Virus genome (UHGV): UHGV-1515682
DNA: 40,877 nt
DNA from: a virus
Direction: 5' to 3' (one strand)
Positions 2,988-36,043 of the stretch are shown here, piece by piece. The notes below the pieces were generated by a model. The model searched no databases. It was given only the letters and a program-made list of their open reading frames with translations, and was not told the DNA's origin. Position 1 is the stretch's first letter. Each line of letters begins with the position of its first letter. The translations under genes were made by a program, and so were the position numbers.

Positions 2988-3869
2988 TTACATAGATGTT
3001 TCGTTTAATTCTTCCCGACGAACGCTGTAAACGTCGGTGGCTTTTGCCAGCAGTTCGTCATCATCTGAAAGTTTTTGTGCAATGTATTTGTAAGCCTTAT
3101 CCAGTTCGGAGACAGTGCTGTAATTCATCGCTGCGCTGGTAAAGGCCATCAGCATTTCTTCTGGATCACGGCTATCCGCTTTACGAGTTTGCTCATCAGG
3201 CTTTTTCACTGGTTTAGCGTTGATCAGACTGTTCATTCCCGCAGCAGTAGTTGTTTGCGGAGTAATGTCTCGCTCAACGCGCGGTGCCGTTTCCTGTAAT
3301 TCGTCAGGGGTGTAAACACCGAGAAGCACATCAGGAGCGTGCAGGCGAGCCCATCGTTTCGTGCAAAGATAGGCAAGCTGCTGGCGCGGATCCTGTTCCC
3401 ACAATGGAGAGTTACGCACTCCGGCTTGCGCCATACTGATGGTAAGCTCACGGGGTTCTGCTTCTCCTTTAAGAACTGCTGACACAGTTACCGTCAGATT
3501 CGGTGATTTATCTGTTTTGCCGTTAACATTCGACCAGTCACCGCTCCAGCGATAATTCAGGCGTGTCGCCAGCAGGCTGGAAGAGGATACGACCGCGTTT
3601 ACCAACTGTGCTTCGTAGCCTAACGTTCCGTTTACCACATGCGTTTTCTGCGCCACGGCGAAAGGGTTCATTCCCCACTGTGCCGCCTGCATGGTCACCG
3701 CCAGACAATCGGCAGGTTTGCCTTCAAGATGTTTCGGTACAGTCGCTTTGCTTTGTGACATCAACTCCGCGAAACGCACCAGTTGATTCATGCCCTCCGG
3801 GCTGAAGATTGCCGCAGCAGTACCTACAGTTGCACCTGGTTGTGATGTGATTGCGATATCATTGCTCAT
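2988..3869 (-). CDS. recT: RecT-like single-strand annealing protein
   Basis: 293 aa; SPLWEQDPRQQLAYLCTKRWARL segment resembles the conserved RecT C-terminal region; sits directly downstream of and coupled (ATGA) to a PD-(D/E)XK exonuclease as in recE-recT pairs. Confidence 0.6.
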   Translation of the reverse strand: MSNDIAITSQPGATVGTAAAIFSPEGMNQLVRFAELMSQSKATVPKHLEGKPADCLAVTMQAAQWGMNPFAVAQKTHVVNGTLGYEAQLVNAVVSSSSLLATRLNYRWSGDWSNVNGKTDKSPNLTVTVSAVLKGEAEPRELTISMAQAGVRNSPLWEQDPRQQLAYLCTKRWARLHAPDVLLGVYTPDELQETAPRVERDITPQTTTAAGMNSLINAKPVKKPDEQTRKADSRDPEEMLMAFTSAAMNYSTVSELDKAYKYIAQKLSDDDELLAKATDVYSVRREELNETSM

Positions 3870-4687
3870 ACGTACATATCCTGTTTACGTGCCCAGTCAG
3901 GGCGTTTAATAATTTCCACTCCGCCCCACTCATCGTTGATGCGGCATTCGTGATAGGTATTCAGATCCCGGCGGAACAGAGCGTGCCCGGCATCGACATC
4001 CTGCGCATCCAGCTCGAACACGCGTACCGGATACCGACCACAATCAATGCTTTCGCTCACGGCAAGAAAGAAAAAACCATGCGGCTGACCAGTAACCCTC
4101 ATTGCTCCTTCGCGGTACATTGCGTCCTGCACGTGGTAGCGGAATTCCTCGATGTGGCGTGCAAAACGGTCCATATCTGCAACCTTTTTCACGTCGACGA
4201 TCACGTTGTGCTCGTTCAGCCATTTATCTGGACGAATTCGGCACAACTCACCCGTCTCTTCATCGTTCCAGTACATTGATGCTTCGCAGTAACCAGGTGC
4301 TTCCAGCATCCAGCGTGCCGCCGGGTGAGCCATTGCGCTATCACGCATCAGCTCCAGTTTCCGCCACTGCTCGGCATCAAGTACCGTAATCCCCATATCC
4401 GCTACATCACGAAGAAATGCTTCTTCGTCAGCTTTACCTTGTTTCGTCCGACGATCGAATTTCGGTGAAACAATGAAGCGTTTGTCGAACTCTCCAGGCT
4501 CCAGAAGCAGACAGTGCAATGCGGTTCCCATATCCAGTGCAGACTTTTTCTCTTCGTCTTCTGGTGCTGCCTGAACCCATTTAAGAAGCGCCGGATTCTT
4601 GGCAACCATGTCCAGTTGCGACTTACTCACGCCGTCACCGGCGTGGTAGTCTTCGTTGCTGATGTCGAAATAAATTCCCGGTTTCAT
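3866..4687 (-). CDS. PD-(D/E)XK exonuclease (RecE-like/YqaJ-like recombination exonuclease)
   Basis: 273 aa; acidic/Lys motifs (IVDVKK) consistent with PD-(D/E)XK fold; operon partner of annealase. Confidence 0.6.
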   Translation of the reverse strand: MKPGIYFDISNEDYHAGDGVSKSQLDMVAKNPALLKWVQAAPEDEEKKSALDMGTALHCLLLEPGEFDKRFIVSPKFDRRTKQGKADEEAFLRDVADMGITVLDAEQWRKLELMRDSAMAHPAARWMLEAPGYCEASMYWNDEETGELCRIRPDKWLNEHNVIVDVKKVADMDRFARHIEEFRYHVQDAMYREGAMRVTGQPHGFFFLAVSESIDCGRYPVRVFELDAQDVDAGHALFRRDLNTYHECRINDEWGGVEIIKRPDWARKQDMYV

Positions 4688-7672: not shown

Positions 7673-8464
7673 ATGAGCAGACATGCAACAGATTGGGCCT
7701 GGGAGACAGATCCAGGTAGCTCGTCATTAAAGCTCATACTGCTCTCGATGGCTGACAGAGCCGATGAATATAACCTCTGCTACCCCAGCATAGAACGCCT
7801 CGTTAAAGACACTTGCCTGAATAAAAAAACCGTGCAGGCCGGACTTATATCGCTCATGAAAATGGGGCTTATTTCAGATACCGGAGAGAGAAAGGGAGCG
7901 ACGAAAAGAGTGCGGGTTTTCTCTCTTAATATAACCAAAAACGGGAACATTAAAGGCAACCGGGAAGGGGGTAATGAACCCGAAAACGGTAATGTTACCG
8001 AAAACGGGAATATACCCAAAAACGGGATGTTGAATGATCCCAAAAACGGGATCCAGAACCAGTCATATAACCAGTCATTTAACCAAGAGAGGGAGAGCAG
8101 GACAAAAACCGGGGATTCTGTTCCTCATGACCCCGGCGCAAACAACGCCGTGATGAATAACTTTGTTCCTCCTGGTGGGATAGGGCAATTAGGAAAATTT
8201 GTCATGCATGAACAATGGCAGCCATCAGATGACTTTCTTCGGAAAAGCTCATTGCAGGGAATCTACCTGGACAGTCTGCCAACGGCACAGGAACTTGCAG
8301 AGTTCAGAATTTACTGGATGGCTGAGGGTAAGGCATACCATCAGGCACAGTGGGAGCAGAAGCTGGCAAGGCGGCTGCAGATTAGCAGACAGAAGCAATC
8401 AACATTACCTGATAACAACGTTCCGCACTGGAACAGCCCTGAAGCATGGGAGGATTTCTTGTGA
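7673..8464 (+). CDS. Replication initiator, lambda O-like, with iteron-encoded repetitive linker
   Basis: 263 aa; N-terminal winged-helix-like region resembling lambda O N-terminus; central NGN/KNG repeats encoded by DNA iterons; followed by P-like gene. Confidence 0.65.
   Translation: MSRHATDWAWETDPGSSSLKLILLSMADRADEYNLCYPSIERLVKDTCLNKKTVQAGLISLMKMGLISDTGERKGATKRVRVFSLNITKNGNIKGNREGGNEPENGNVTENGNIPKNGMLNDPKNGIQNQSYNQSFNQERESRTKTGDSVPHDPGANNAVMNNFVPPGGIGQLGKFVMHEQWQPSDDFLRKSSLQGIYLDSLPTAQELAEFRIYWMAEGKAYHQAQWEQKLARRLQISRQKQSTLPDNNVPHWNSPEAWEDFL
7935..8052. repeat. Origin-like iteron array (five copies of CC(C/G)AAAACGG(G/T)A) inside the O-like gene
   Basis: Copies at 7935, 7978, 7997, 8015, 8038 followed by two accagtcat repeats; same arrangement as ori-lambda inside gene O. 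Confidence 0.6.
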
Positions 8465-13408: not shown

Positions 13409-14880
13409 AAGATACAGCGTTATCTCCTGAAGAGCAGTTGATCGAGGATATTGCAGGGTTCACTCACGATCCGCTTGGTTATGCCCTCTATGCGTTCCCG
13501 TGGGGGGAAGAGGGGACTGAACTGGCACATGCCACCGGTCCACGTCAGTGGCAGGCCGATGCGTTCCGAGAGATACGTGATCACCTGCAGAATCCAGAGA
13601 CGCGCTATCAGCCGCTTATGCTGGCACGCGCTTCTGGTCACGGTATTGGTAAATCCGCATTCATCTCAATGCTGATCAACTGGGGCATGTCCACTTACGA
13701 GGATTGTAAGGTCGTGGTGACCGCCAACACCGACAACCAGCTACGAACGAAGACCTGGCCGGAAATTATCAAGTGGTCGAACCTTGCTATCACGAAAGAC
13801 TGGTTTACCTGTACCGCTACCGCGATGTACAGCAATGACCTAGGGCACGACAAGCGGTGGCGGGCTGACGCAATACCCTGGTCTGAGCACAACACCGAGG
13901 CATTCGCCGGACTACACAACGAGCGCAAACGCATCATCGTGGTGTTTGATGAAGCGTCGAACATTGCGGATCTGGTGTGGGAAGTTGCCGAGGGTGCGCT
14001 TACGGACGAAGACACTGAGATTATTTGGGTGGCGTTCGGAAACCCTACACGTAACACCGGGCGTTTTCGCGAATGTTTCCGCAAATATAAACACCGCTGG
14101 AAAACTGCGCAGATTGACAGCCGGACGGTGGAAGGCACTAACAAACAGCAGTTGCAGAAATGGGTTGATGACTACGGGGAAGACAGCGACTTCGTTAAAA
14201 TCCGTGTGCGCGGCATATTCCCTGATGCATCTGAATTGCAGTTTATCCCTACCGGTCTTACTGATGAGGCAATGAAACGGGTGGTAACCGCTGCGCAGGT
14301 TGCACATGCTCCGGTGATAATCGGCGTTGACCCGGCATACTCCGGCGTTGATGACGCTGTGATATACCTGCGGCAGGGGCTGCACAGTAAGGTGCTGTGG
14401 ACCGGCAACAAGACCACTGACGATCTGATTATGGCAAAGCGTATCGCTGACTTTGAAGACCAGTATCAGGCTGACGCGGTGTTCATCGACTTCGGTTACG
14501 GTACCGGGCTGAAGTCAATCGGTGACGGTTGGGGGCGCACATGGCAACTTGTTCCGTTCGGTGGCGCGTCTACTGACCCGCAGATGCTCAACAAGCGTGG
14601 GGAGATGTTCAACTCATGCAAGACATGGCTGAGGCTGGGCGGCATGCTGGATGACCAGGAAACAGCGGACGACCTGTCGGCGGCAGAGTACAAAGTTCGC
14701 GTGGACGGTAAAATCGTTATCGAACCGAAGGAAGATATCAAAGAGCGGCTTGGGCGTTCTCCTGGTAAAGGCGATGCGCTACTGCTGACGTTTGCGTTCC
14801 CTGTGTCGAAGCGTCTGCGAATTCCCGGGCAGCAGAACCAGCAAGGCAAGGCGCTTACCGAGTACGATCCATATGCTTAG
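13405..14880 (+). CDS. Terminase large subunit
   Basis: 491 aa; Walker A-like ASGHGIGKS, ATPase plus nuclease regions; GTGA overlap with small subunit. Confidence 0.9.
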   Translation: MKDTALSPEEQLIEDIAGFTHDPLGYALYAFPWGEEGTELAHATGPRQWQADAFREIRDHLQNPETRYQPLMLARASGHGIGKSAFISMLINWGMSTYEDCKVVVTANTDNQLRTKTWPEIIKWSNLAITKDWFTCTATAMYSNDLGHDKRWRADAIPWSEHNTEAFAGLHNERKRIIVVFDEASNIADLVWEVAEGALTDEDTEIIWVAFGNPTRNTGRFRECFRKYKHRWKTAQIDSRTVEGTNKQQLQKWVDDYGEDSDFVKIRVRGIFPDASELQFIPTGLTDEAMKRVVTAAQVAHAPVIIGVDPAYSGVDDAVIYLRQGLHSKVLWTGNKTTDDLIMAKRIADFEDQYQADAVFIDFGYGTGLKSIGDGWGRTWQLVPFGGASTDPQMLNKRGEMFNSCKTWLRLGGMLDDQETADDLSAAEYKVRVDGKIVIEPKEDIKERLGRSPGKGDALLLTFAFPVSKRLRIPGQQNQQGKALTEYDPYA

Positions 14881-15695
14881 TCTTTATTTTTATCATCGAA
14901 ACCTGATAATCCAGATAGAACACCAAAGTTATTAAAAACGTTTGGCTTACCAGATTTTAATCCGGATAAGTTGTGTTGCTCCAAAAAGTTGCTAATTGTT
15001 TGGCCGTTGCCAAGTGCAAGGCTTTTTATTTGAGATTTTTCAGGGTATTTGAGTTTGTATTCGTCGAAATCATTTTGGAGGGTCTTATATGCCTCATTCA
15101 TTCTTCCCAGAGTTTCCGATATCTCTTTTAATGAATGATTTAGAGCTGCTAACTGAGCACTGGCGGATCTCAATTCGTCATCTTTAGCTTTCAACTCGGC
15201 AGTCAATTCCCCCATACTATTCTTTGATCGAATAATCTCTTCTTTCATCTCTTGGATGTCTTTTTCCGCGCCAGTCTTAACTTTGTCGTATGTAACATCT
15301 TTTTTAGCCAATAACCTCTGCAGTCTGGTTTCACGCTGGATTTTTCTTGCCTTCAGGTGATTTTCGATTGAGTCATTATTATCAAGAGGCTTTGCTTGCC
15401 ATACGTTAATGATATTGTTTACCCATGGTAATAGGCAGCAGATAGCAATTACAGATAAGCATGGATAAAACATAACAGTTTTCCATGTGCTGTTATCTGA
15501 GATATATGAAATTTTATCTATTATGTTTGATTTGCTAAAAAATAGATAAAGAATTGATTTCCAGTTGAAGGCGCACCAGGACATAACAAAAGCACCAAGC
15601 ACAGGGTTTTTGGCTCGATTCACGGCAGTATTGGCAGTAGATAAAAACAGCTCTTTAAACGATTCAAACATGCTAATTACCTTGAAGTTTTTCAT
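14877..15695 (-). CDS. AT-rich cargo gene: membrane-anchored coiled-coil protein of unknown function
   Basis: 272 aa from ATG 15695 (MKNFKVISMF); two predicted TM helices then long coiled coil; opposite strand to flanking late genes; low GC. Confidence 0.6.
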   Translation of the reverse strand: MKNFKVISMFESFKELFLSTANTAVNRAKNPVLGAFVMSWCAFNWKSILYLFFSKSNIIDKISYISDNSTWKTVMFYPCLSVIAICCLLPWVNNIINVWQAKPLDNNDSIENHLKARKIQRETRLQRLLAKKDVTYDKVKTGAEKDIQEMKEEIIRSKNSMGELTAELKAKDDELRSASAQLAALNHSLKEISETLGRMNEAYKTLQNDFDEYKLKYPEKSQIKSLALGNGQTISNFLEQHNLSGLKSGKPNVFNNFGVLSGLSGFDDKNKD

Positions 15696-15699
15696 GATT

Positions 15700-15714
15700 A
15701 TACCTTTAAGGTAA
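15700..15714. promoter_or_regulatory. Dyad operator-like site atacctttaaggtaa adjacent to cargo gene start
   Basis: ATACC-N5-GGTAA (one mismatch) 5 bp upstream of ATG 15695. Confidence 0.45.
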
Positions 15715-15767
15715 TTTGCGGTCATCAAGCAAAAAAATGCCCGGCGAACCGGGCGAACTGGAAGCAA

Positions 15768-29614: not shown

Positions 29615-32089
29615 ATGAGACAGGAATGTATACAAGCGGTTCAGCAGGCGGCGCAGCGCATGTTAACGGCGCGAGAAATACAGAACATTGAAGACCGCAT
29701 TTATCGAAATATGCGCTCCATTGCTCGTGATGACCCTATGTCGTGGCGACAACTTTCCGAATCAGAGCGGCTATATCGAGCAGCACAATTGGCATCTGAA
29801 GAATTACAGCGAGAAGCGGCATTAAAGAAACGTCGTGTGGCTCTCACTATAGCCGCGCGTCAGAGATTGGATAAATTTATCAATAGCTATCAAGGGGCTG
29901 ATGGGAAACTTGGCGCTCTTAACCGTACTATAGCTTTTAATGCAGACGGTAAATCTAATTTCCTCTCTGTTGAATCCAGAACAAAAGCCACCCGTGATTA
30001 TGCATTGAGTCAATTGCAGGAGGCATTCGAAGCAGTTGATCCTCGCTTTTTTGGTCTGTTTGAAGATGAAGCGGGCGTACGTGACCTGGTATATGAAATG
30101 CGGGGGCAAAATACTGGCAATGCTAAAGCAAGAAACGGTGCTAAGGCGTGGAGAGAAGTTACAGAGCTGCTGCGCCGCCGGTTTAATGATGCTGGTGGGG
30201 ACATTGGCTATCTCGAAAACTGGGGGATCCCTCAACATCATTCTATGGAAAAGGTTGGGGCAGTATCAAAGGATAAGTGGGTTAGCGATGTTATAGGTAA
30301 GCTGGATCGCAAATATTATATCCGAGCCGATGGACAACTGATGAACGATGCCGAGTTGTCTTCATTTCTTGGAGAGGCTTATAACACGATCGCTACTGGT
30401 GGGCTGAATAAGCTTACTGATACCGGAATGCGAATTTCCGGCGCACGTGCTAACCGTGGTAATGCATCACGACAGATACATTTCAAAGATGCAGATTCCT
30501 ATCTGCAATATCAGCAACTTTATGGCGATCGCTCTCTATGGGAAATCATGGTCGGTCACCTGGAAGGTATCAGTAAAGATATTGCACTGGTGGAAACATA
30601 TGGCCCAAACCCCGATCATGTTTTCCGCTCTCTTCTTGATCAGGTGAAGGCAGAAACGGCAACAGCTAACCCGAGTAAAACCGGTAAAGTCGAGCGGCTG
30701 GCGAACAACACAGAGAATCTGTACAACTTTATTTCCGGAAAGACACAGCCTGTAGCGAATCCGCACATCGCGCGATGGTCTGACAATATCCGCAACTGGC
30801 TGGTTGCCAGCAGACTCGGATCCGCGTTGCTGTCATCGTTCTCTGATCTTGGAACCATGTATCTGTCTGCGAAGGTTACCAACCTTCCAATGAACCAGTT
30901 ATTCCGCAACCAGCTTGAAGCTATGGACCCAACGAACCGTACAGAACTTGCGCGGGCGCGCCGCGCTGGTCTGGCGATGGAATCTCTACTTGGCAGCGTT
31001 AACCGCTGGGCGATGGATAATATGGGGCCGTCAGTGTCTCGTTGGGCGGCAACGGCGGTAATGCGTGCCAGTGGGCTTACAGCATGGTCAGATGCGCACA
31101 AGCGCGCCTATGGCGTAACCATGATGGGAAGCCTGGGAGAAGTAGTGTCACGGACACCAGACCTTCGTAGCCTCGATGACTCTGATTTTCGTATCCTGAA
31201 AAGCAAAGGGATTACTGACATAGACTGGAGCGTATGGAAGCTGGCGAAACAGGAGGACTGGGGGAACGGTAATAATACGATGCTGACACCGGAAAGCATT
31301 ATGCGTATCCCTGATTCAGCAGTTAAACATCTTGGTGAGCCTGAACGCGTGAAATTTGAGGCAATGCGTAAACTGCTCGGTGCCGTAACTGAAGAAGTTG
31401 ATATGGCTGTTATTACACCGGGAGCACGTGAGCAACTGATAACCGGTTCTGGTATTCAGCGTGGAACATGGAAAGGTGAATTAACGAGAAGTGTTTTCCT
31501 GTTTAAATCGTTCCCTATCTCGGTTGTTATGCGTCACTGGTCACGCGCTATGGGTATGCCGTCTGCTGGTGGGCGTGCGGCATATATTGCGACGTTTATT
31601 GCCAGTACGACCATTCTTGGCGCTTTGTCGCAGCAACTTAACGACCTTGCGTCTGGTCGTAATCCTCGAGAGATGACAGGAGAAGATGCCGCAAAATTCT
31701 GGCTTGGTGCTCTACTGAAAGGTGGTGGTCTTGGCCTTTACGGTGACTTTTTATTGTCAGATCACACTAGGTACGGAAGCGGCGCGCTGGCGTCGATGCT
31801 TGGCCCGGTAGCTGGTCTGGTTGATGACGTAGTGAAGATTGCTCAGGGCATACCGTTAAATGCTGTGGAAGGGAAGAGTGAGCAGACTGGTGGTGATCTG
31901 GTGAAGCTGGGGAAAGGTTTGATGCCTGGTGCGAATCTCTGGTACTTGAAGGCGGCTCTCGATCACATGATCTTTAACCAGATGCAGGAGTATTTTTCAC
32001 CAGGCTATTTGCGTAAAATGGAGCAACGTTCGAAGAAAGAGTTTAACCAGACATACTGGTGGCGACCACAGGATGTCACTCCGCAATAA
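29615..32089 (+). CDS. Large internal virion/ejection protein
   Basis: 824 aa; C-terminal Gly-rich hydrophobic region. Confidence 0.55.
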   Translation: MRQECIQAVQQAAQRMLTAREIQNIEDRIYRNMRSIARDDPMSWRQLSESERLYRAAQLASEELQREAALKKRRVALTIAARQRLDKFINSYQGADGKLGALNRTIAFNADGKSNFLSVESRTKATRDYALSQLQEAFEAVDPRFFGLFEDEAGVRDLVYEMRGQNTGNAKARNGAKAWREVTELLRRRFNDAGGDIGYLENWGIPQHHSMEKVGAVSKDKWVSDVIGKLDRKYYIRADGQLMNDAELSSFLGEAYNTIATGGLNKLTDTGMRISGARANRGNASRQIHFKDADSYLQYQQLYGDRSLWEIMVGHLEGISKDIALVETYGPNPDHVFRSLLDQVKAETATANPSKTGKVERLANNTENLYNFISGKTQPVANPHIARWSDNIRNWLVASRLGSALLSSFSDLGTMYLSAKVTNLPMNQLFRNQLEAMDPTNRTELARARRAGLAMESLLGSVNRWAMDNMGPSVSRWAATAVMRASGLTAWSDAHKRAYGVTMMGSLGEVVSRTPDLRSLDDSDFRILKSKGITDIDWSVWKLAKQEDWGNGNNTMLTPESIMRIPDSAVKHLGEPERVKFEAMRKLLGAVTEEVDMAVITPGAREQLITGSGIQRGTWKGELTRSVFLFKSFPISVVMRHWSRAMGMPSAGGRAAYIATFIASTTILGALSQQLNDLASGRNPREMTGEDAAKFWLGALLKGGGLGLYGDFLLSDHTRYGSGALASMLGPVAGLVDDVVKIAQGIPLNAVEGKSEQTGGDLVKLGKGLMPGANLWYLKAALDHMIFNQMQEYFSPGYLRKMEQRSKKEFNQTYWWRPQDVTPQ

Positions 32090-32097
32090 AAGGAGAT

Positions 32098-32232
32098 ATG
32101 ATGGTTCAAATAACTTTTATTGTACTAATATGTGCAGCGTTTTTATGCTATTCATACATTTTGATAAAAATGGGTTTCAATTGGAATCTCTGTTGCGTGC
32201 AGCGGCATGGTTCGGCTTTGTAGTATTCGGAA
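32098..32232 (+). CDS. Small hydrophobic peptide (44 aa)
   Basis: ATG 32098/32101 preceded by AGGAG; hydrophobic product; AT-rich; below ORF-track cutoff. Confidence 0.3.
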
Positions 32233-32308
32233 TTGTATTGTTCGGAAGAATAATAAAATAACTAGTTAATTTGTGGATTGGTGCTGTTTTTCCATGATAG
32301 GGGTAATT

Positions 32309-32689
32309 ATGAGAAAAGTATTTTTGATTTTTGGATTTATGCTTCTCGTTGGATGCCAGTCAGCTGCACAGTTTGAAAGAAATATGCTTACGTGGCGCGG
32401 GCAGAGTATAGACGCAATGGTTCAGCAGTGGGGGTATCCTCAGGGAGAGCTTACATCTCCAGATGGAAACAGAGTGTATGTTTACTCAAGCTCTGGTAGT
32501 TATAACGTACCACAAACCACAACGTATAATACTACGTCTAATCTAATTGGTAATACTATATATTCAAACACATACGCAACAACTGATGGCGGTTATACAC
32601 TCCATTTCAGTTGCTCTGTTTACGTTGAGTTTGGTGCTGATAAGATTATTAAAAATGTTACATGGCGCGGTAATAATTGCGTTGCGTGA
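32309..32689 (+). CDS. Cargo lipoprotein
   Basis: 126 aa; signal peptide with lipobox (MRKVFLIFGFMLLVGC); AT-rich; Ser/Thr/Asn/Tyr-rich mature region. Confidence 0.6.
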   Translation: MRKVFLIFGFMLLVGCQSAAQFERNMLTWRGQSIDAMVQQWGYPQGELTSPDGNRVYVYSSSGSYNVPQTTTYNTTSNLIGNTIYSNTYATTDGGYTLHFSCSVYVEFGADKIIKNVTWRGNNCVA

Positions 32690-32697
32690 CATGTCAC
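32686..32697. repeat. Perfect 12-bp palindrome GTGACATGTCAC (copy 2)
   Basis: Overlaps stop codon of lipoprotein gene; immediately followed by terminator. Confidence 0.5.
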
Positions 32698-32722
32698 AGG
32701 CCGCTTTCGCGGCCTTGTTTTT
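32698..32722 (+). terminator. Rho-independent terminator after lipoprotein gene
   Basis: aggccgc-tttc-gcggcct hairpin followed by tgttttt. Confidence 0.65.
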
Positions 32723-32882
32723 AACGAATGCCACCGCCACCCGGGCGGGAATCCGCAGAACGCCCACCGCAGCGGGAGCCGTCAGCGGCAGTATCGCTGT
32801 CGTGCTGACAACGACCGGCAAAGGCCTGAGTTGAAGCTACCAGAGACAACAAAACGAACAGTGCAGCAAATGCTTTTTTCAT
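32721..32882 (-). CDS. Possible small secreted peptide (53 aa)
   Basis: Internal ATG gives MKKAFAALFVLLSLVASTQAFA signal-peptide-like N-terminus; mature part low-complexity and GC-rich, so may be spurious. Confidence 0.25.
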   Translation of the reverse strand: MKKAFAALFVLLSLVASTQAFAGRCQHDSDTAADGSRCGGRSADSRPGGGGIR

Positions 32883-32943
32883 TGTGACATTTCCATCTAT
32901 AAGCCACCTCAATGTGGCGTCAATGAGTGTAGCACTGACTTTT

Positions 32944-32966
32944 GTTTCGTCCACAAAAAAGCCCGC
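32944..32966 (-). terminator. Rho-independent terminator after 32981-33613 gene
   Basis: Minus-strand AGAAGCCCGC-AGCG-CGGGCTT followed by T6. Confidence 0.6.
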
Positions 32967-32980
32967 GCTGCGGGCTTCTA

Positions 32981-33613
32981 TTAATGCAGTTTATCTTTGC
33001 TTATAACCAGTAGTCTGTGGGTATGCACATCTTTATCACTGCCCCAACAGAAATCAGCCCACTGGCTATAGAAATCATCCCATGATGTCATGAAGCTAAG
33101 AGGTCTATCTTCTTCAGAGCCATCTGAAACGTATACATTATATCCTGGGGTGTTTATAGCCCAAGAAATCATTCTTTCCCAGAATCTTCTCCCATCGATT
33201 GTTTGTTGCTCATCAGATACAACGATCGCATATTGCTCTAGGAAGAACTGAAAAAAAATCTGAGGCAAACCATGAACAGCACGGTCATGAATAACATTAG
33301 GCGTACGCCATACCATGATCTGCGTACATGTTCTTTTGGCTTCGACGATATCTTCCCGAAAGATTAACTTAACCGCATACACCGTTTCTGGAGTATCGCT
33401 GGTAGTAATCATTCTGTAATGATCGCCATTACAAGATTTTACAAGGCGATAACCATAAGGTGTTGTGAATCCCGGAAGAACGAAGTCAACCACACCTTTC
33501 GCTAAGTAGCTTTCGGTGTGACTAGTGTTCTTCTCAGACATGTTCAGTTTTCTATCGAAATCTGCTTCTGGGATAATGTATGGCATCGCTTTTCTTGTTG
33601 TATTTGTTCTCAT
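32981..33613 (-). CDS. Cargo protein of unknown function (210 aa)
   Basis: AT-rich ORF with own terminator and operator-like site 60 bp upstream; no recognisable motif. Confidence 0.55.
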   Translation of the reverse strand: MRTNTTRKAMPYIIPEADFDRKLNMSEKNTSHTESYLAKGVVDFVLPGFTTPYGYRLVKSCNGDHYRMITTSDTPETVYAVKLIFREDIVEAKRTCTQIMVWRTPNVIHDRAVHGLPQIFFQFFLEQYAIVVSDEQQTIDGRRFWERMISWAINTPGYNVYVSDGSEEDRPLSFMTSWDDFYSQWADFCWGSDKDVHTHRLLVISKDKLH

Positions 33614-33672
33614 TTCGTCCTCCCATGTTTGGCTACAGGACGCGTTTTGAAGGGAAGATTAAAAATGCTTTC

Positions 33673-33687
33673 TTACCCTTGAGGTAA
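33673..33687. promoter_or_regulatory. Dyad operator-like site ttacccttgaggtaa
   Basis: Perfect TTACC-N5-GGTAA upstream of 33613 gene start. Confidence 0.5.
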
Positions 33688-33758
33688 TAGTACGCTATTC
33701 ACCCCAAGTCTGCAATCTGTACAGAATTATTTAAAGGTACGTCCCTGTGCCGCCGCCG

Positions 33759-34445
33759 TCAGAAGAACCCTGCCTTGTCGTTGATGTACTCCGCGTGCGT
33801 CTGGATATCACGCAGGCATTTGCTCACACCAACGATGTAACAGAACATGGTGGTCAGCTCCGCCGCCGCGCCCGATACGTCGTGCCCGTCTTCCTGTAAC
33901 TGGTTCAGCAGATTCATCAGCAGTGAGTTCTCCGTCAGGCCGAGAACACCAGACGGCGAATGAATCAGGCTACGGTAGCCTGGCTTCAGTGGGGCACTGT
34001 AGGTTTTGTTCTCTATCTTCATCGCCTGCATTACTGCTGACGCCGTGGCGTTGGCTACCTGGTCGGCAACCATCTTTATGCGTTCTTCCTGCGGGAGCGA
34101 GTTTTTAATGTAACTTCCGGTGCGGCGGATCTGAGGAAGAACCTCACCTGTAACCCATTTACGAAAGCGGTATGGGATAGTGCCTGGTGTCACCGCATCG
34201 CGGCAGCGGAGGATCAGTGTGTAGAGGCCTGACTCGTTGATAATATTGGTTTCGCCTTGACGGCCTAAGTTAAATTTAGCCCTTTCATCATCATCAAGAG
34301 ATTTTATTGACATAGTGGGGTTTGTCAGTTGAAGAGCTTTAATAACGTCTTTGGCAACAAACCAAGGATTTCCATCAATAACAATGGCTCGAATGGTTGC
34401 TTCTGATTCAAAATGAAAAACAGATGGGGTTACGTTAGCAGTCAT
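33759..34445 (-). CDS. Bro-N domain antirepressor-like protein
   Basis: 228 aa from ATG 34445; N-terminal Bro-N signature (FHFESEATIRAIVIDGNPWFVAKDV…GLYTLILR…RFRKWVTGEVLPQIRRTGSY); C-terminal ~70 aa homologous to the product of 35591-35848. Confidence 0.75.
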   Translation of the reverse strand: MTANVTPSVFHFESEATIRAIVIDGNPWFVAKDVIKALQLTNPTMSIKSLDDDERAKFNLGRQGETNIINESGLYTLILRCRDAVTPGTIPYRFRKWVTGEVLPQIRRTGSYIKNSLPQEERIKMVADQVANATASAVMQAMKIENKTYSAPLKPGYRSLIHSPSGVLGLTENSLLMNLLNQLQEDGHDVSGAAAELTTMFCYIVGVSKCLRDIQTHAEYINDKAGFF

Positions 34446-34839: not shown

Positions 34840-35568
34840 ATGGAAGTTTTCTGGATAGTTGTTGGTGTGGTTGCGGTGATTATTTACGTTATCAACCAGA
34901 ACAAGACTAAGATCTCTGATCGTACGGTCGTTAATCATAACAAAACGATAAAGACCGAAGATGGGGAGATAACGATTAATCGTACACAGGTGATAGAACA
35001 CACCTCTACTCAGTTTCAAAAAACTGGAGGTAATGCGCCTAATATTTCCGCACCTCCTGCTTATGATAGTGCGGTAATCCAGACATATTATAAACAGCAG
35101 GAGTTAGCAAAAGAGAGGCAACTGATTCAGCCAAAGCCGTTTACAGCTGAGATTCCACCTGGAGTGTCAACGCGTCCGGCATATCATGGAAGATTCCCTG
35201 GTGATGACATATCGTCTCAGTCATCTAAAAAAGCACCTCAGGCAATATCAGAGCCAGCAAGAATACCTTCTGTATCGCCGCCAAAAGAAGAATCAGCTAA
35301 CAGAGTTTCAAGTGGTAGCAAGCAGTGCTTGCGATGCAGAATAAACCTTCCATATGAAAAATTCAGGAAATCGTCAAAAAATCCAGATGGATTGACTAAA
35401 TGGTGTGCAAGGTGTCTCGATGGCCCAAAGAATACACGCCATATGAAGTGGTGCCCAATTTGTAATGTCCGCAGAAAACGAACCAGCTTTTACCCTAATA
35501 ATCAAAATGCGGACGGCTTAATGGCATGGTGCAAAACGTGCTGGGATGAGCACAAAGCGAAACGATAG
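34840..35568 (+). CDS. Membrane-anchored protein with two C-terminal zinc-ribbon-like repeats
   Basis: 242 aa; N-terminal TM helix; repeated C-x2-C…DG…W-C-x2-C units. Confidence 0.55.
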   Translation: MEVFWIVVGVVAVIIYVINQNKTKISDRTVVNHNKTIKTEDGEITINRTQVIEHTSTQFQKTGGNAPNISAPPAYDSAVIQTYYKQQELAKERQLIQPKPFTAEIPPGVSTRPAYHGRFPGDDISSQSSKKAPQAISEPARIPSVSPPKEESANRVSSGSKQCLRCRINLPYEKFRKSSKNPDGLTKWCARCLDGPKNTRHMKWCPICNVRRKRTSFYPNNQNADGLMAWCKTCWDEHKAKR

Positions 35569-35590: not shown

Positions 35591-35848
35591 TTACCGGGTT
35601 TGTTTTCGTAATTGTTCGGCACAATAGTCGAGATGTGTTTGCAGATCCCGCATAGACATCTGTGAGCTGGTGACGTAGTTAATCAGTGCAGTCAGTTCGG
35701 CAAGTGGGCCATCGACATTAAATCCATCCTTATCGAGATCCCGGAGTAATTTCATCAAGTGCGATCCCTCCACCAGTGACCTGACGCCTCCCGGCGTGTG
35801 AATCCTTTCGGTAAATCCGTCTTCCAGTGGATAGTGATACTGCTGCAT
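35591..35848 (-). CDS. Small antirepressor-like protein behind a LexA box
   Basis: 85 aa from ATG 35848 (MQQYHYPLEDGF…) with GGAGAAG RBS; homologous to C-terminal domain of Bro-N protein; near-consensus LexA box 20 bp upstream. Confidence 0.6.
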   Translation of the reverse strand: MQQYHYPLEDGFTERIHTPGGVRSLVEGSHLMKLLRDLDKDGFNVDGPLAELTALINYVTSSQMSMRDLQTHLDYCAEQLRKQTR

Positions 35849-35867
35849 CTTATCTTCTCCATGCAAT

Positions 35868-35887
35868 AACTGTATGTTTATACAGTA
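35868..35887. promoter_or_regulatory. LexA (SOS) box AACTGTATGTTTATACAGTA
   Basis: CTGT-N8-ACAG with AT-rich spacer, 17/20 to TACTGTATATATATACAGTA; overlaps TATAAA -10-like hexamer on minus strand. Confidence 0.65.
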
Positions 35888-35924
35888 ACAAATAATTTGT
35901 TTGCTATCCAGCACGTTTTGCAAA

Positions 35925-35939
35925 TTACCTGAAAGGTAA
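35925..35939. promoter_or_regulatory. Dyad operator-like site ttacctgaaaggtaa
   Basis: Perfect TTACC-N5-GGTAA upstream of LexA box. Confidence 0.5.
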
Positions 35940-36043
35940 TATCTATTCGTATTTACAGCATTTCTATCCATATGTGGTTTTTCAGGTAATAGAATAACCA
36001 GATATGCGGCGCAACGGGTGCTGCGACTATCTGGAGATTTAAC

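Follow-up and report, generated by a model that had tools for sequence, protein, structure and literature searches.

A variable accessory-gene (moron) region with two exchangeable cargo slots in an epsilon15/phiV10-like Escherichia coli prophage

Which genes does a prophage carry between its virion genes and its antirepressor, and whom might they serve? In the window (the whole stretch of DNA that was analysed, 40,877 nucleotides of the virus genome UHGV-1515682) this question is raised by four small genes, here called A, B, C and D, which lie between the last internal-virion gene (29615-32089) and the gene for a Bro-N antirepressor (33759-34415; Table 1). According to megablast and annotation, the window groups with phiV10, ZX5 and phiv142-3, all of them Uetakevirus; the left flanking gene is annotated as a virion gene in phiV10 and is kept in all relatives. 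The open reading frames are present where the initial annotation had placed them, and its proposal of an accessory island is well supported by the mosaic gene content among close relatives and by the independent assortment of the parts. In addition, none of the four genes is a conserved virion component. The island is a variable accessory-gene (moron) region of an epsilon15/phiV10-like (Uetakevirus) E. coli prophage, that is, an ordinary kind of phage feature that belongs to a familiar class and has uncharacterised contents.

In the ZX5 paper these genes appear only as 'hypothetical proteins' that differ from those of other phages (PMC9782041). Literature searches on WP_001260052 (D) and on Uetakevirus combined with lipoprotein returned no paper, and those on GNAT anti-phage defence and on phiV10/epsilon15 antirepressors returned none that characterises the island genes. 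Comparison of A to D with Pfam, NCBIfam and PADLOC gave nothing meaningful, with no PADLOC defence family for any gene, and the matches in PHROGs were restricted to families of 'unknown function' or 'membrane associated protein'.

Table 1. Features of the accessory region and its flanks (positions in the window)
Feature	Position	Strand	Remarks
Last internal-virion/ejection gene, left flank	29615..32089	+	824 aa; homologue of phiV10p20 / epsilon15 gp17; phrog_684 'virion structural protein', E=0
AAGGAG ribosome-binding site	32090..32095	+	Read from sequence; serves the first gene behind the virion gene, whatever its identity
Gene A, hydrophobic peptide (putative coding)	32098..32223	+	41 aa, or 40 from ATG 32101; one transmembrane-grade helix
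Cargo slot 1 (A and B here)	32103..32683	+	Stretch exchanged in relatives; blastn breakpoints
Overlapping ORF	32130..32261	+	43 aa; -1 frame relative to A; second transmembrane-grade stretch; Kyte-Doolittle maximum 2.14
Gene B, lipoprotein	32309..32689	+	126 aa; lipobox LVGC; Cys16; Gln at +2; conserved Cys102/Cys124; BamE/OsmE/BLIP-like fold (model)
Palindrome GTGACATGTCAC	32686..32697		Perfect; right boundary of slot 1; includes B stop codon; read from sequence
Intrinsic terminator ending late operon	32698..32722	+	Hairpin 32698-32715, then T-run; -14.3 kcal/mol, z=-3.0
Gene C, secreted mini-protein	32721..32882	-	53 aa; signal peptide ending AFA, followed by G; two Cys in the mature peptide (about 31 aa); in conserved spacer
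Intrinsic terminator, slot 2 resident	32951..32979	-	Hairpin 32957-32979, 10-bp stem and U6; centroid -15.3 kcal/mol, z=-2.85
Cargo slot 2 (D, ribosome-binding site and leader here)	32977..33672	-	blastn breakpoints
Gene D	32981..33613	-	210 aa; cytoplasmic; monocistronic; divergent GNAT-like fold (model); ribosome-binding site GGAGGAC 33617-33623
Promoter flank, slot 2 resident (putative)	33673..33758	-	-35 TTGCAG 33715-33710; 17-nt spacer; -10 TACTAT 33692-33687
10-bp palindrome TCTGTACAGA	33716..33725	-	Just upstream of the -35 element
Bro-N antirepressor, right flank	33759..34415	-	PF02498, E=4.6e-20; phrog_130 'anti-repressor Ant'; RefSeq 'phage antirepressor Ant'

The island had been described as AT-rich. 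This holds for the region as a whole, whose GC content of 42.3% against 48.6% for the window corresponds to the 2.8th percentile among segments of equal size, and for A, B and D (38-41%), with A and B together (38.1%) falling in the 0.9th percentile of such segments; gene C, at 57%, is instead GC-rich.

Comparison with relatives by blastn reveals sharp breakpoints, which set two exchangeable cargo slots apart from a conserved spacer (32684-32976) containing the late-operon terminator, gene C and the terminator of D. The late operon closes with slot 1, which lies after a common ribosome-binding site and before a common terminator. Its cargo is a cell-envelope protein in every case, and relatives carry different ones: the 46-aa two-helix phiV10p21, the four-helix Orf12 of phiv142-3, or B alone in Salmonella, Klebsiella and E. 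coli MB07152. Slot 2, occupied here by D, holds a YafO toxin and a small ORF in TL-2011b, HicA and a DUF1902 protein in MB07152, a DUF2335 membrane protein in Salmonella and two small ORFs in phiv142-3, and is empty in phiV10 and Klebsiella. In phiv142-3, TL-2011b, Salmonella, Klebsiella and E. coli MB07152 the other cargo sits at the same breakpoints, and no homology was found between the island proteins and the alternative cargo proteins. Moreover, phiV10 is devoid of B, C and D, and strain 2015C-4944 carries C and D without B. The parts assort independently among 5426 complete E. coli genomes, with D present in 93, A with B in 34-35 and the whole island in 16. The division into two slots, one of them with a resident promoter and terminator, had been overlooked by the initial annotation, as had the GNAT-like character of D.

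Transcription signals of the region are shared to a large extent with relatives. Specifically, phiV10p21 and the Salmonella lipoprotein gene start 10 nt past the stop of the virion gene and use a ribosome-binding site equivalent to the one found here. Terminator scanning and folding disclosed no terminator between the virion gene and B, and A and B therefore end the late operon. Of the terminators that had been attributed to the single genes, two strong intrinsic ones were recovered, after B and after D, but A has none of its own. The element after B is also annotated as a terminator in phiV10, and phiV10, Salmonella and Klebsiella all have the palindrome GTGACATGTCAC at the corresponding junction, whatever the cargo. 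Despite their different cargo, phiv142-3 and TL-2011b retain the terminator that follows D here; its hairpin also occurs in Salmonella and Klebsiella. On the opposite side of slot 2, the promoter flank is conserved at 92-97% identity in these two relatives, again ahead of other cargo, and a -35/-10 pair is found at the corresponding position upstream of D genes with 83% identity. With 8 of 12 positions agreeing with the consensus, the pair in the window is under the threshold of the consensus scan, and it is the conservation of its position that argues for it. Slot 2 is, on these sequence features, an expression socket with a putative resident sigma-70-type promoter and a resident terminator. 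An 'operator-like site' had also been proposed at the D promoter; it amounts to the 10-bp palindrome TCTGTACAGA, of a kind expected about 0.15 times by chance in the 145-bp spacer according to our estimate, and it is not kept upstream of the 83%-identical D genes. An inverted-repeat scan of the spacer upstream of D found nothing else, and the aligned upstream regions of D from other backgrounds share no conserved palindrome, so that the operator hypothesis was rejected.

In its location, the island is the positional counterpart of the sieA-immI region of P22, whose annotated map reads genes 7/20/16, sieA, orf59a, mnt, arc, ant and tailspike gene 9. In both phages, accessory or immunity genes are placed between the ejection-protein genes and the antirepressor/tailspike genes, the first gene after the ejection genes codes for an envelope protein, and the antirepressor comes later. 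The two regions differ in several respects: the present antirepressor belongs to the Bro-N type, the island is free of Arc and Mnt genes, and the envelope cargo shares the strand of the late operon, in contrast to sieA, which is divergent and has its own promoter. At the protein level, A, the ORF overlapping it, B, C and D gave no BLASTP match at E<=10 to P22 SieA (a 164-aa inner-membrane protein), and the island proteins show no homology to P22 orf59a and Mnt. Similarities extend to lambdoid morons and prophage defence hotspots, which likewise consist of promoter-gene-terminator units of deviant base composition, with variable content at a fixed genome position and toxin-antitoxin (TA) modules as alternatives. 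By the classic definition, the regulatory signals of a moron travel with the gene, lambdoid examples being bor and lom; in slot 2, by contrast, exchange is limited to the coding cargo, and promoter and terminator are part of the conserved flanks.

Concerning the envelope cargo, the lipoprotein with lipobox LVGC announced by the initial annotation is borne out: B starts with the signal peptide MRKVFLIFGFMLLVG followed by C16 and Q, and Cys16 is invariant in 21 homologues. Lipoproteins with a residue other than Asp at +2 are sorted to Lol export, which is thus predicted for B, making it a predicted outer-membrane lipoprotein; the two further conserved cysteines (C102 and C124) are consistent with export. 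The AF2 model (pLDDT 85) suggests a small alpha-plus-antiparallel-beta domain of the BamE/OsmE/BLIP (SmpA_OmlA-like) type, with OsmE, beta-lactamase inhibitor protein-like proteins and the T6SS immunity protein BtiO among the fold neighbours. B is a lipoprotein like BamE and OsmE, but it is distinguished from the BamE/OsmE/BLIP proteins by an extra beta-meander rich in Thr, Asn and Tyr, by the conserved C102-C124 pair, by a phage-restricted distribution and by having no match to the Pfam BamE family (PF04355). Homology of B to a BamE-annotated 126-aa lipoprotein of a Serratia prophage, located near D, was rejected (hhalign probability 1.4%), and the B profile gave chance-level matches only against PDB sequences. 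Its best and only family is phrog_3716, of 'unknown function', with no match in Pfam, NCBIfam or PADLOC. An identical B protein occurs alongside different tailspike families in Salmonella, and its role would therefore be independent of O-antigen specificity.

The possible signal-peptide mini-ORF on the opposite strand, gene C, turned out to be real and conserved (RefSeq WP_000708858.1; phrog_14503, 2e-40). It has 57 homologous clusters across Enterobacterales, in which the mature peptide is near-invariant and the signal peptide variable. Gene A, first reported as 44 aa long, has 41 codons for amino acids, or 40 from the better-spaced second ATG; the strong ribosome-binding site ascribed to it is present ahead of ATG 32098/32101. 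The Kyte-Doolittle 17-residue maximum of A is 2.61, and Pfam, PHROGs, NCBIfam and PADLOC returned no family match for it. The ORF that overlaps A is without a ribosome-binding site of its own.

The 210-aa minus-strand protein, D, is the product of a real gene with 63 close clusters. Sensitive homology searching recovered a large family (at least 918 representative clusters at E<=1e-3, clustered at 50% identity) but no match to a curated family. The original remark that no catalytic motif is recognisable holds at the sequence level, whereas the modelled D shows a GNAT-like fold. In particular, the AF2 model (pLDDT 78.5, pTM 0.75) has a mixed alpha/beta core with the order beta4-alpha3-beta5-alpha4-beta6, and the fold was indicated by two independent structure searches; against BFVD, Foldseek retrieved viral 'Acyl-CoA N-acyltransferase' / 'NAT_SF' proteins (E=2e-5 to 1e-3). 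Because these scores are moderate, the assignment applies to the fold level only: the modelled structure of D resembles the GNAT (acyl-CoA N-acyltransferase) fold in a divergent form. No acetyltransferase match was obtained for D in Pfam or NCBIfam, nor for 74 diverse members of its superfamily in Pfam, even weak (E<=1), and D profiles built from 27 and 74 sequences gave chance-level matches only against PDB sequences. Motif A, Q/R-x-x-G-x-G/A, which forms the pyrophosphate-binding loop at the start of alpha3, is absent from the D family. At the equivalent beta4-alpha3 junction D reads S-D134-x-x-Q137-T138-x-x-G141-x-R-F144-W145 (family form S-D-x-x-Q-T-x-x-G-x-x-F-W), and this family-specific motif could still bind a phosphate-bearing ligand. 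With respect to the GNAT superfamily, D has an extra N-terminal beta-sheet and a helical hairpin. Many polar residues are invariant, a pattern more often associated with enzymes or ligand-binding proteins than with proteins whose role is purely structural. D occurs solo in podovirus-like, siphovirus-like and P1-like backgrounds and in phage-plasmids of approximately 100 kb, and Ant/Arc genes often lie no more than 2.5 kb away. Members of the superfamily also stand alone on chromosomes and occur in virulent-phage-like contigs, and the family thus need not be defensive. One distant member lies in a HipA/TacA/reverse-transcriptase island.

How, then, could these genes act? We infer lysogen-protective roles for the island genes. 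The envelope proteins of slot 1 would exclude superinfecting phages at the cell surface or in the periplasm, by masking a secondary receptor or blocking the ejection channel, and they may also shield progeny from cell debris; D would be an enzyme expressed from its own transcript and modifying a host or invading-phage molecule to the benefit of the lysogen. Taken together, the two-slot layout seen in the relatives, lysogen-protective envelope proteins and a lysogen-benefit enzyme D form an account that we consider moderately probable. Receptor-masking lipoproteins are encoded by phages such as T5 (Llp) and phi80, N15 and HK022 (Cor). Like these, B is a small lipoprotein encoded among phage late/virion genes, with predicted outer-membrane targeting; it differs in being larger, in its BamE/BLIP-like modelled fold and in showing no homology to them by family searches. 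No homology to any named exclusion protein emerged from Pfam, PHROGs and BLASTP against P22 SieA. The suggestion that B blocks a receptor against superinfecting phages is plausible, B being a predicted outer-membrane lipoprotein whose modelled BamE/BLIP-type fold is a protein-binding one and whose gene occupies the place of sieA in P22.

B, and perhaps C, might on the other hand be a Bor/Iss-type lysogenic-conversion or virulence factor, or a periplasmic inhibitor or immunity protein directed at the host, competitors or T6SS effectors, and be unrelated to phage exclusion. The fold neighbours of B, which include beta-lactamase inhibitor protein-like proteins, BtiO and OsmE, are compatible with such a role, as are its indifference to tailspike type and the origin of the listed carrier genomes, most of which come from human clinical isolates, with the avian pathogen APEC O1 among the others. 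B is nevertheless bound to a single phage lineage and a single position, in the late operon right after the ejection genes; this position is unchanged in the prophages of three genera (E. coli, Salmonella and Klebsiella), and a role centred on the phage accounts for this better than one centred on the host. In addition, B has no homology to Bor/Iss or other named factors, and we regard the host-centred reading as unlikely. It is possible, if doubtful, that part of the island is non-functional debris of past cassette exchange. This applies especially to A, which RefSeq leaves unannotated, and to the ORF overlapping it: their two transmembrane-grade segments lie in different frames and resemble a frameshifted gene of the phiV10p21 type, and speculatively the pair may be a frameshift-split remnant of such a two-helix protein. 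The 219-bp A segment is missing where B directly follows the virion gene. It is 99.5-100% identical in the 30 listed copies and present in 34 E. coli genomes, at 99% identity or more in all of them. No diverged copies were found in the phage and E. coli collections, and conservation is therefore uninformative on the reading frame of A and selection on it. Debris is argued against by the intact ATG and inherited strong common ribosome-binding site of A, by the near-identity of the A copies and, for B, C and D, by clear constraint at the protein level.

As for D, an acyltransferase-like enzyme could serve phage offence rather than the lysogen, inactivating a host immune protein or modifying RNA/tRNA during lytic growth or induction, and the GNAT-fold anti-CRISPR AcrVA5 provides a precedent. 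Superfamily members in virulent-phage-like contigs fit with this; one of them shares an operon with PhoH, which it directly follows, and has RNA ligase and Macro-domain genes nearby. The closest viral structural neighbours of D, which belong to the jumbo phage Atu_ph07 and uncultured myoviruses, fit as well, as does the frequent vicinity of antirepressor genes, which act at induction. What renders an anti-defence or take-over function improbable is that D forms a stand-alone unit oriented against the late operon, with its own terminator and putative promoter, that the same socket elsewhere holds toxin-antitoxin modules, the usual signature of lysogen-expressed cargo, and that D is rare among sequenced phage isolates (4 records). 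The alternation with YafO and HicAB modules in slot 2 could point to an abortive-infection, toxin-like effector, inactive until infection and with a fold akin to that of the GNAT toxins TacT and AtaT. Two distant relatives of D have links of this sort: P0174, an SRA_ScoMcrA-D fusion directly behind a Phd/YefM antitoxin gene, in which the SRA domain is weak in the Pfam scan (E=0.002), has no match among PDB sequences and appears as PF26348 SRA_ScoMcrA in precomputed matches, and a protein fused to the N-domain of the MqsA antitoxin. Both are single contigs, however, and the D-domain fusions and other longer members (231-504 aa) gave no match in PADLOC. At this locus D is monocistronic, and neither its 145-nt upstream nor its 98-nt downstream spacer fully encloses an ORF of at least 25 aa. 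Unlike TacT and AtaT, D has no antitoxin here: no RHH/DUF1778 antitoxin gene of the TacAT, AtaRT or KacAT type is adjacent and co-transcribed. Neighbour clustering found no conserved partner gene in 42 loci, and an antitoxin partner was rejected here on that ground. Together with solo chromosomal homologues next to minCDE and the missing canonical CoA-binding motif, this makes a toxin-like D very unlikely, and an enzyme benefiting the lysogen is the reading that we retain.

A broader proposal would have D as the founder of a large family of GNAT-derived enzymes (comprising the clusters counted above, absent from Pfam, NCBIfam and PADLOC, and with SDxxQTxxGxxFW as a new ligand-binding motif) used by mobile elements as a single-gene immune or counter-immune effector, a role at which the rare fusions to an SRA modified-DNA reader behind Phd and to the MqsA antitoxin domain hint; the superinfection-exclusion factor long missing from epsilon15-like podoviruses would be B, acting on a step common to different tailspikes, such as a secondary receptor or the ejection channel. 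In this full form the proposal is tentative and rather improbable.

The island leaves current concepts unchanged and adds uncharacterised members to a familiar class. If the proposed functions hold, slot 2 would be a natural expression socket marking the place where epsilon15-like prophages keep genes of benefit to the lysogen, and it could therefore be mined for new defence or addiction genes. B would be a candidate exclusion lipoprotein, which could help to find the secondary receptor and the entry route of this phage group. Finally, D would represent a widespread, unannotated GNAT-like family distributed across temperate phages, phage-plasmids, virulent phages and some chromosomes.

Genes A to D of UHGV-1515682 form a two-slot moron region at the position occupied in P22 by sieA-immI, where the ejection genes 7/20/16 are followed by sieA, mnt/arc/ant and the tailspike gene in a layout parallel to that of the island. 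By megablast, the flanks of 31900-34000 are matched in phiV10, vB_EcoP_ZX5 and phiv142-3, which are epsilon15-like podoviruses (Uetakevirus), and 16 complete E. coli genomes, APEC O1 and CE10 among them, carry the full stretch at >=99%. Of 5426 complete E. coli genomes, 93 have D, 34-35 have A plus B, 16 have the island in its entirety, and at least a portion of it occurs in 558. This partial carriage, together with the varied cargo at both slots, bears out the reading of the region as an accessory island; all four open reading frames listed in the initial annotation are present and its account was mostly correct, with details corrected as follows. The only publication found to mention the island genes (PMC9782041) does so as hypothetical proteins, and no publication or experiment addressing their function was found.

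Coordinates of the island, its cargo slots and its flanks
Feature	Coordinates	Strand	Length	Remarks
Left-flank gene	29615-32089		824 aa	virion structural protein, phiV10p20 / epsilon15 gp17-type (phrog_684 and phiV10 annotation)
A	ATG at 32098 or 32101	plus	41 or 40 aa	AAGGAG upstream at 32090-95
Slot 1	32103-32683			A+B here (blastn breakpoints)
B	32309-32689	plus	126 aa	begins MRKVFLIFGFMLLVG followed by CQ
Conserved spacer	32684-32976			palindrome GTGACATGTCAC, terminator, C, terminator of D
Terminator	32698-32715 + T-run	plus		strong; same element annotated as terminator in phiV10
C	32721-32882	minus	53 aa	RefSeq-annotated; phrog_14503 match
Terminator of D	32957-32979 + U6	minus		strong
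Slot 2	32977-33672			D here (blastn breakpoints)
D	32981-33613	minus	210 aa	phrog_1349 match
Right flank	33673-33758			TTGCAG, 17-nt spacer, TACTAT; 92-97% identity upstream of other cargo
Right-flank gene	33759-34415	minus		Bro-N antirepressor (PF02498, 4.6e-20)

The GC content of the island is 42.3%, compared with 48.6% for the window, and corresponds to the 2.8th percentile among windows of equal size. Its description as a run of low-GC genes holds for the island as a whole, for A+B (38.1%, 0.9th percentile) and for D (40.9%), but not for C (57.4%). Similarly, the genes were said to have their own terminators, and two strong ones do exist, whereas nothing resembling a terminator separates B from the virion gene. 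In addition, folding of the A-B spacer is not stronger than that of shuffled sequences (z=-1.2), so that A and B are the tail of the late operon. The operator-like site proposed at the D promoter did not hold up: an inverted-repeat scan detected no symmetric site near this promoter other than a palindrome of 10 bp (33716-33725) directly adjoining the -35 element, and this palindrome is not kept upstream of 83%-identical D genes. The leader of D (33625-33690, minus strand) contains a possible hairpin with arms AAGGG...CCCTT, and the 83%-identical loci show at the same place a shorter one of different sequence, AAAGGT...ACCTTT; leader structure may be conserved across D loci.

When seven related loci were compared with the window by blastn, the breakpoints turned out to be sharp, with the left flank ending at 32089/32102. 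Slot 1 holds a 46-aa two-helix membrane protein in phiV10 and E. coli 2015C-4944, a four-helix membrane protein in phiv142-3, and homologues of B in prophages of Salmonella, Klebsiella and E. coli MB07152; these are 68-79% identical to B in Salmonella and Klebsiella, and start 10 nt past the virion gene in Salmonella and MB07152. In the Klebsiella prophage L066 the gap from the virion gene to the B homologue measures 142 bp and contains, on the opposite strand, a 39-aa hydrophobic ORF (3855-3974, minus strand), which may be due to chance or represent another small membrane peptide at slot 1. Whatever the cargo, slot 1 is bounded on its right by a perfect 12-bp palindrome (32686-32697) in prophages of E. 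coli, Salmonella and Klebsiella, possibly a joint left by recombination or a site bound by a protein; GTGACAT, a half-site related to it, is located at 32885-32891, just upstream of C.

Slot 2 is occupied by the YafO toxin and a small ORF in TL-2011b, by HicA and DUF1902 in MB07152, by a DUF2335 membrane protein in Salmonella and by two small ORFs in phiv142-3, while it is empty in phiV10 and Klebsiella. Because the flanks are kept around different cargo, slot 2 can be regarded as a socket with a resident terminator and, by conservation of position, a resident promoter; in diverged D loci, a -35/-10 pair occupies the equivalent relative position. The phiV10 alignments overlap by 11 nt (4395-4405 of its locus, L002, against 32733-32743 and 33749-33759 of the window), and phiV10 appears to be a deletion of 32744-33748 that removed the slot-2 promoter, the entire D gene and the greater part of C. 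What survives of C, its 3' end, probably corresponds to the 29-aa gene annotated as PhiV10p22.

The cellular locations and folds of the island products are predicted. B is a lipoprotein, as originally proposed, with 37 homologous clusters in Enterobacterales, among which Cys16, Cys102 and Cys124 are invariant, and its AF2 model has a pLDDT of 85. According to the established Lol sorting rule, the Gln at +2 predicts that B is sorted to the outer membrane. The signal-peptide mini-ORF noticed on the opposite strand, C, belongs to 57 clusters from E. coli, Klebsiella, Citrobacter, Cronobacter, Salmonella, Pectobacterium and Dickeya, in which a variable signal peptide precedes an almost invariant mature C-x12-C peptide (CQHDSDTAADGSRCGGRSADSRPGG); judged from its sequence, C is a secreted disulfide mini-protein. 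Its stretch D-x-D...DG-x-x-C resembles the Excalibur calcium-binding motif, but C has no match in Pfam.

The 210-aa minus-strand protein D, also correctly recognized, is monocistronic, with the ribosome-binding site GGAGGAC. Its close family (~210 aa) is confined to Enterobacterales, and, in a profile search at E<=1e-3, the wider family extends to 918 representative clusters, the majority of the listed ones measuring ~200 aa. D and 74 diverse relatives find no match in Pfam, nor does D in NCBIfam or PADLOC. The superfamily conserves N29, Y79, Q98, W102, F121, D134, F144 and W145; at the strand-to-helix junction where GNATs have Q/RxxGxG/A, the D family has SDxxQTxxGxxFW instead. The claim that no catalytic motif is recognisable stands as regards family matches and the canonical GNAT motif, which is absent, but a GNAT-like fold is predicted. 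No conserved neighbour gene accompanies D in 42 loci. Its genomic backgrounds are Uetakevirus prophages; siphovirus-like prophages of Serratia, where it adjoins Arc/Ant; P1-like plasmids, where it is flanked by a baseplate gene and sit; and phage-plasmids of ~100 kb, where an ATPase gene of ParA-like (MipZ/AAA_31-type) character is nearby. Among sequenced phage isolates, D is present in only 4. Distant members are known from five settings: fused to SRA_ScoMcrA and preceded by a Phd antitoxin gene, fused to an MqsA N-domain, as a solo chromosomal gene near minCDE, following PhoH on a virulent-phage-like contig, and within a HipA/TacA/reverse-transcriptase island.

As to function, the envelope cargo of slot 1 might act in exclusion or envelope modification. 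B has no homology to SieA or any named exclusion protein (Pfam, PHROGs; BLASTP against SieA), and a Bor-like virulence or immunity role is the alternative; in Salmonella an identical protein stands alongside two different tailspike families, which argues that its role is not tied to O-antigen specificity. For A, the predicted hydrophobic peptide and its ribosome-binding site stand, with the length reduced from 44 aa, and the peptide contains a single stretch of transmembrane grade (Kyte-Doolittle 2.61). The A segment could instead be decaying: in phiV10, both helices of the 46-aa protein encoded at this position are read in a single frame, whereas 32098-32261 encodes two transmembrane-grade segments in frames offset by -1, with an A-AAA-A run (32121-32125) between them. 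This arrangement could result from a mutation that shifted the frame or from ribosomes slipping at a low level, and no diverged copies exist against which to check this. In the Serratia prophages with D beside Arc/Ant (L007, L010), a lipoprotein of 126 aa, matched weakly by Pfam BamE, is encoded nearby (8079-8459), with no homology to B detected (BLASTP E=3.3; hhalign probability 1.4%); given this non-homologous counterpart, BamE-like lipoproteins may be recurrent cargo of immI-type regions.

D, in turn, would be an enzyme-like effector acting to the lysogen's benefit, since its socket elsewhere holds toxin-antitoxin modules. The rival proposals are an anti-defence role and an abortive-infection toxin. 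In the metagenomic contig L073 (4823-6080), a protein of 359 aa combines an SRA_ScoMcrA domain with a D-like one, and the start of its gene overlaps with that of a Phd/YefM antitoxin; on this single contig, the D-like domain thereby takes the place of the toxin/effector in a TA-like pair.

Elsewhere in the window, a 295-aa ORF (14877-15767, minus strand) inside the plus-strand packaging/head region coincides with the lowest GC (36.5-38%) and looks like another moron; it matches phrog_4780 (unknown function), and in PADLOC it is matched only weakly, by long SMC-type defence proteins (DndD, E=2e-5), a result suspected to reflect coiled-coil composition rather than homology. Between the antirepressor and tailspike genes, 34840-35568 (plus strand) encodes a 242-aa protein with a hydrophobic, apparently transmembrane N-terminal segment and two Cys-rich C-terminal repeats, matching phrog_6762 and, more weakly, endonuclease VII, Lar-like families and the Pfam Stc1 domain; the gene is missing from the otherwise near-identical AHB7 prophage. 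A 125-aa ORF (35591-35971, minus strand), whose sole match is the antirepressor C-terminal module (phrog_450, phrog_15539), is a second, free-standing copy of this domain close to the full Bro-N gene.

Taken as a whole, the island represents a further instance of a well-known kind, and its most interesting elements are the fixed-promoter cargo socket and the D family, predicted to be GNAT-like and without database annotation.
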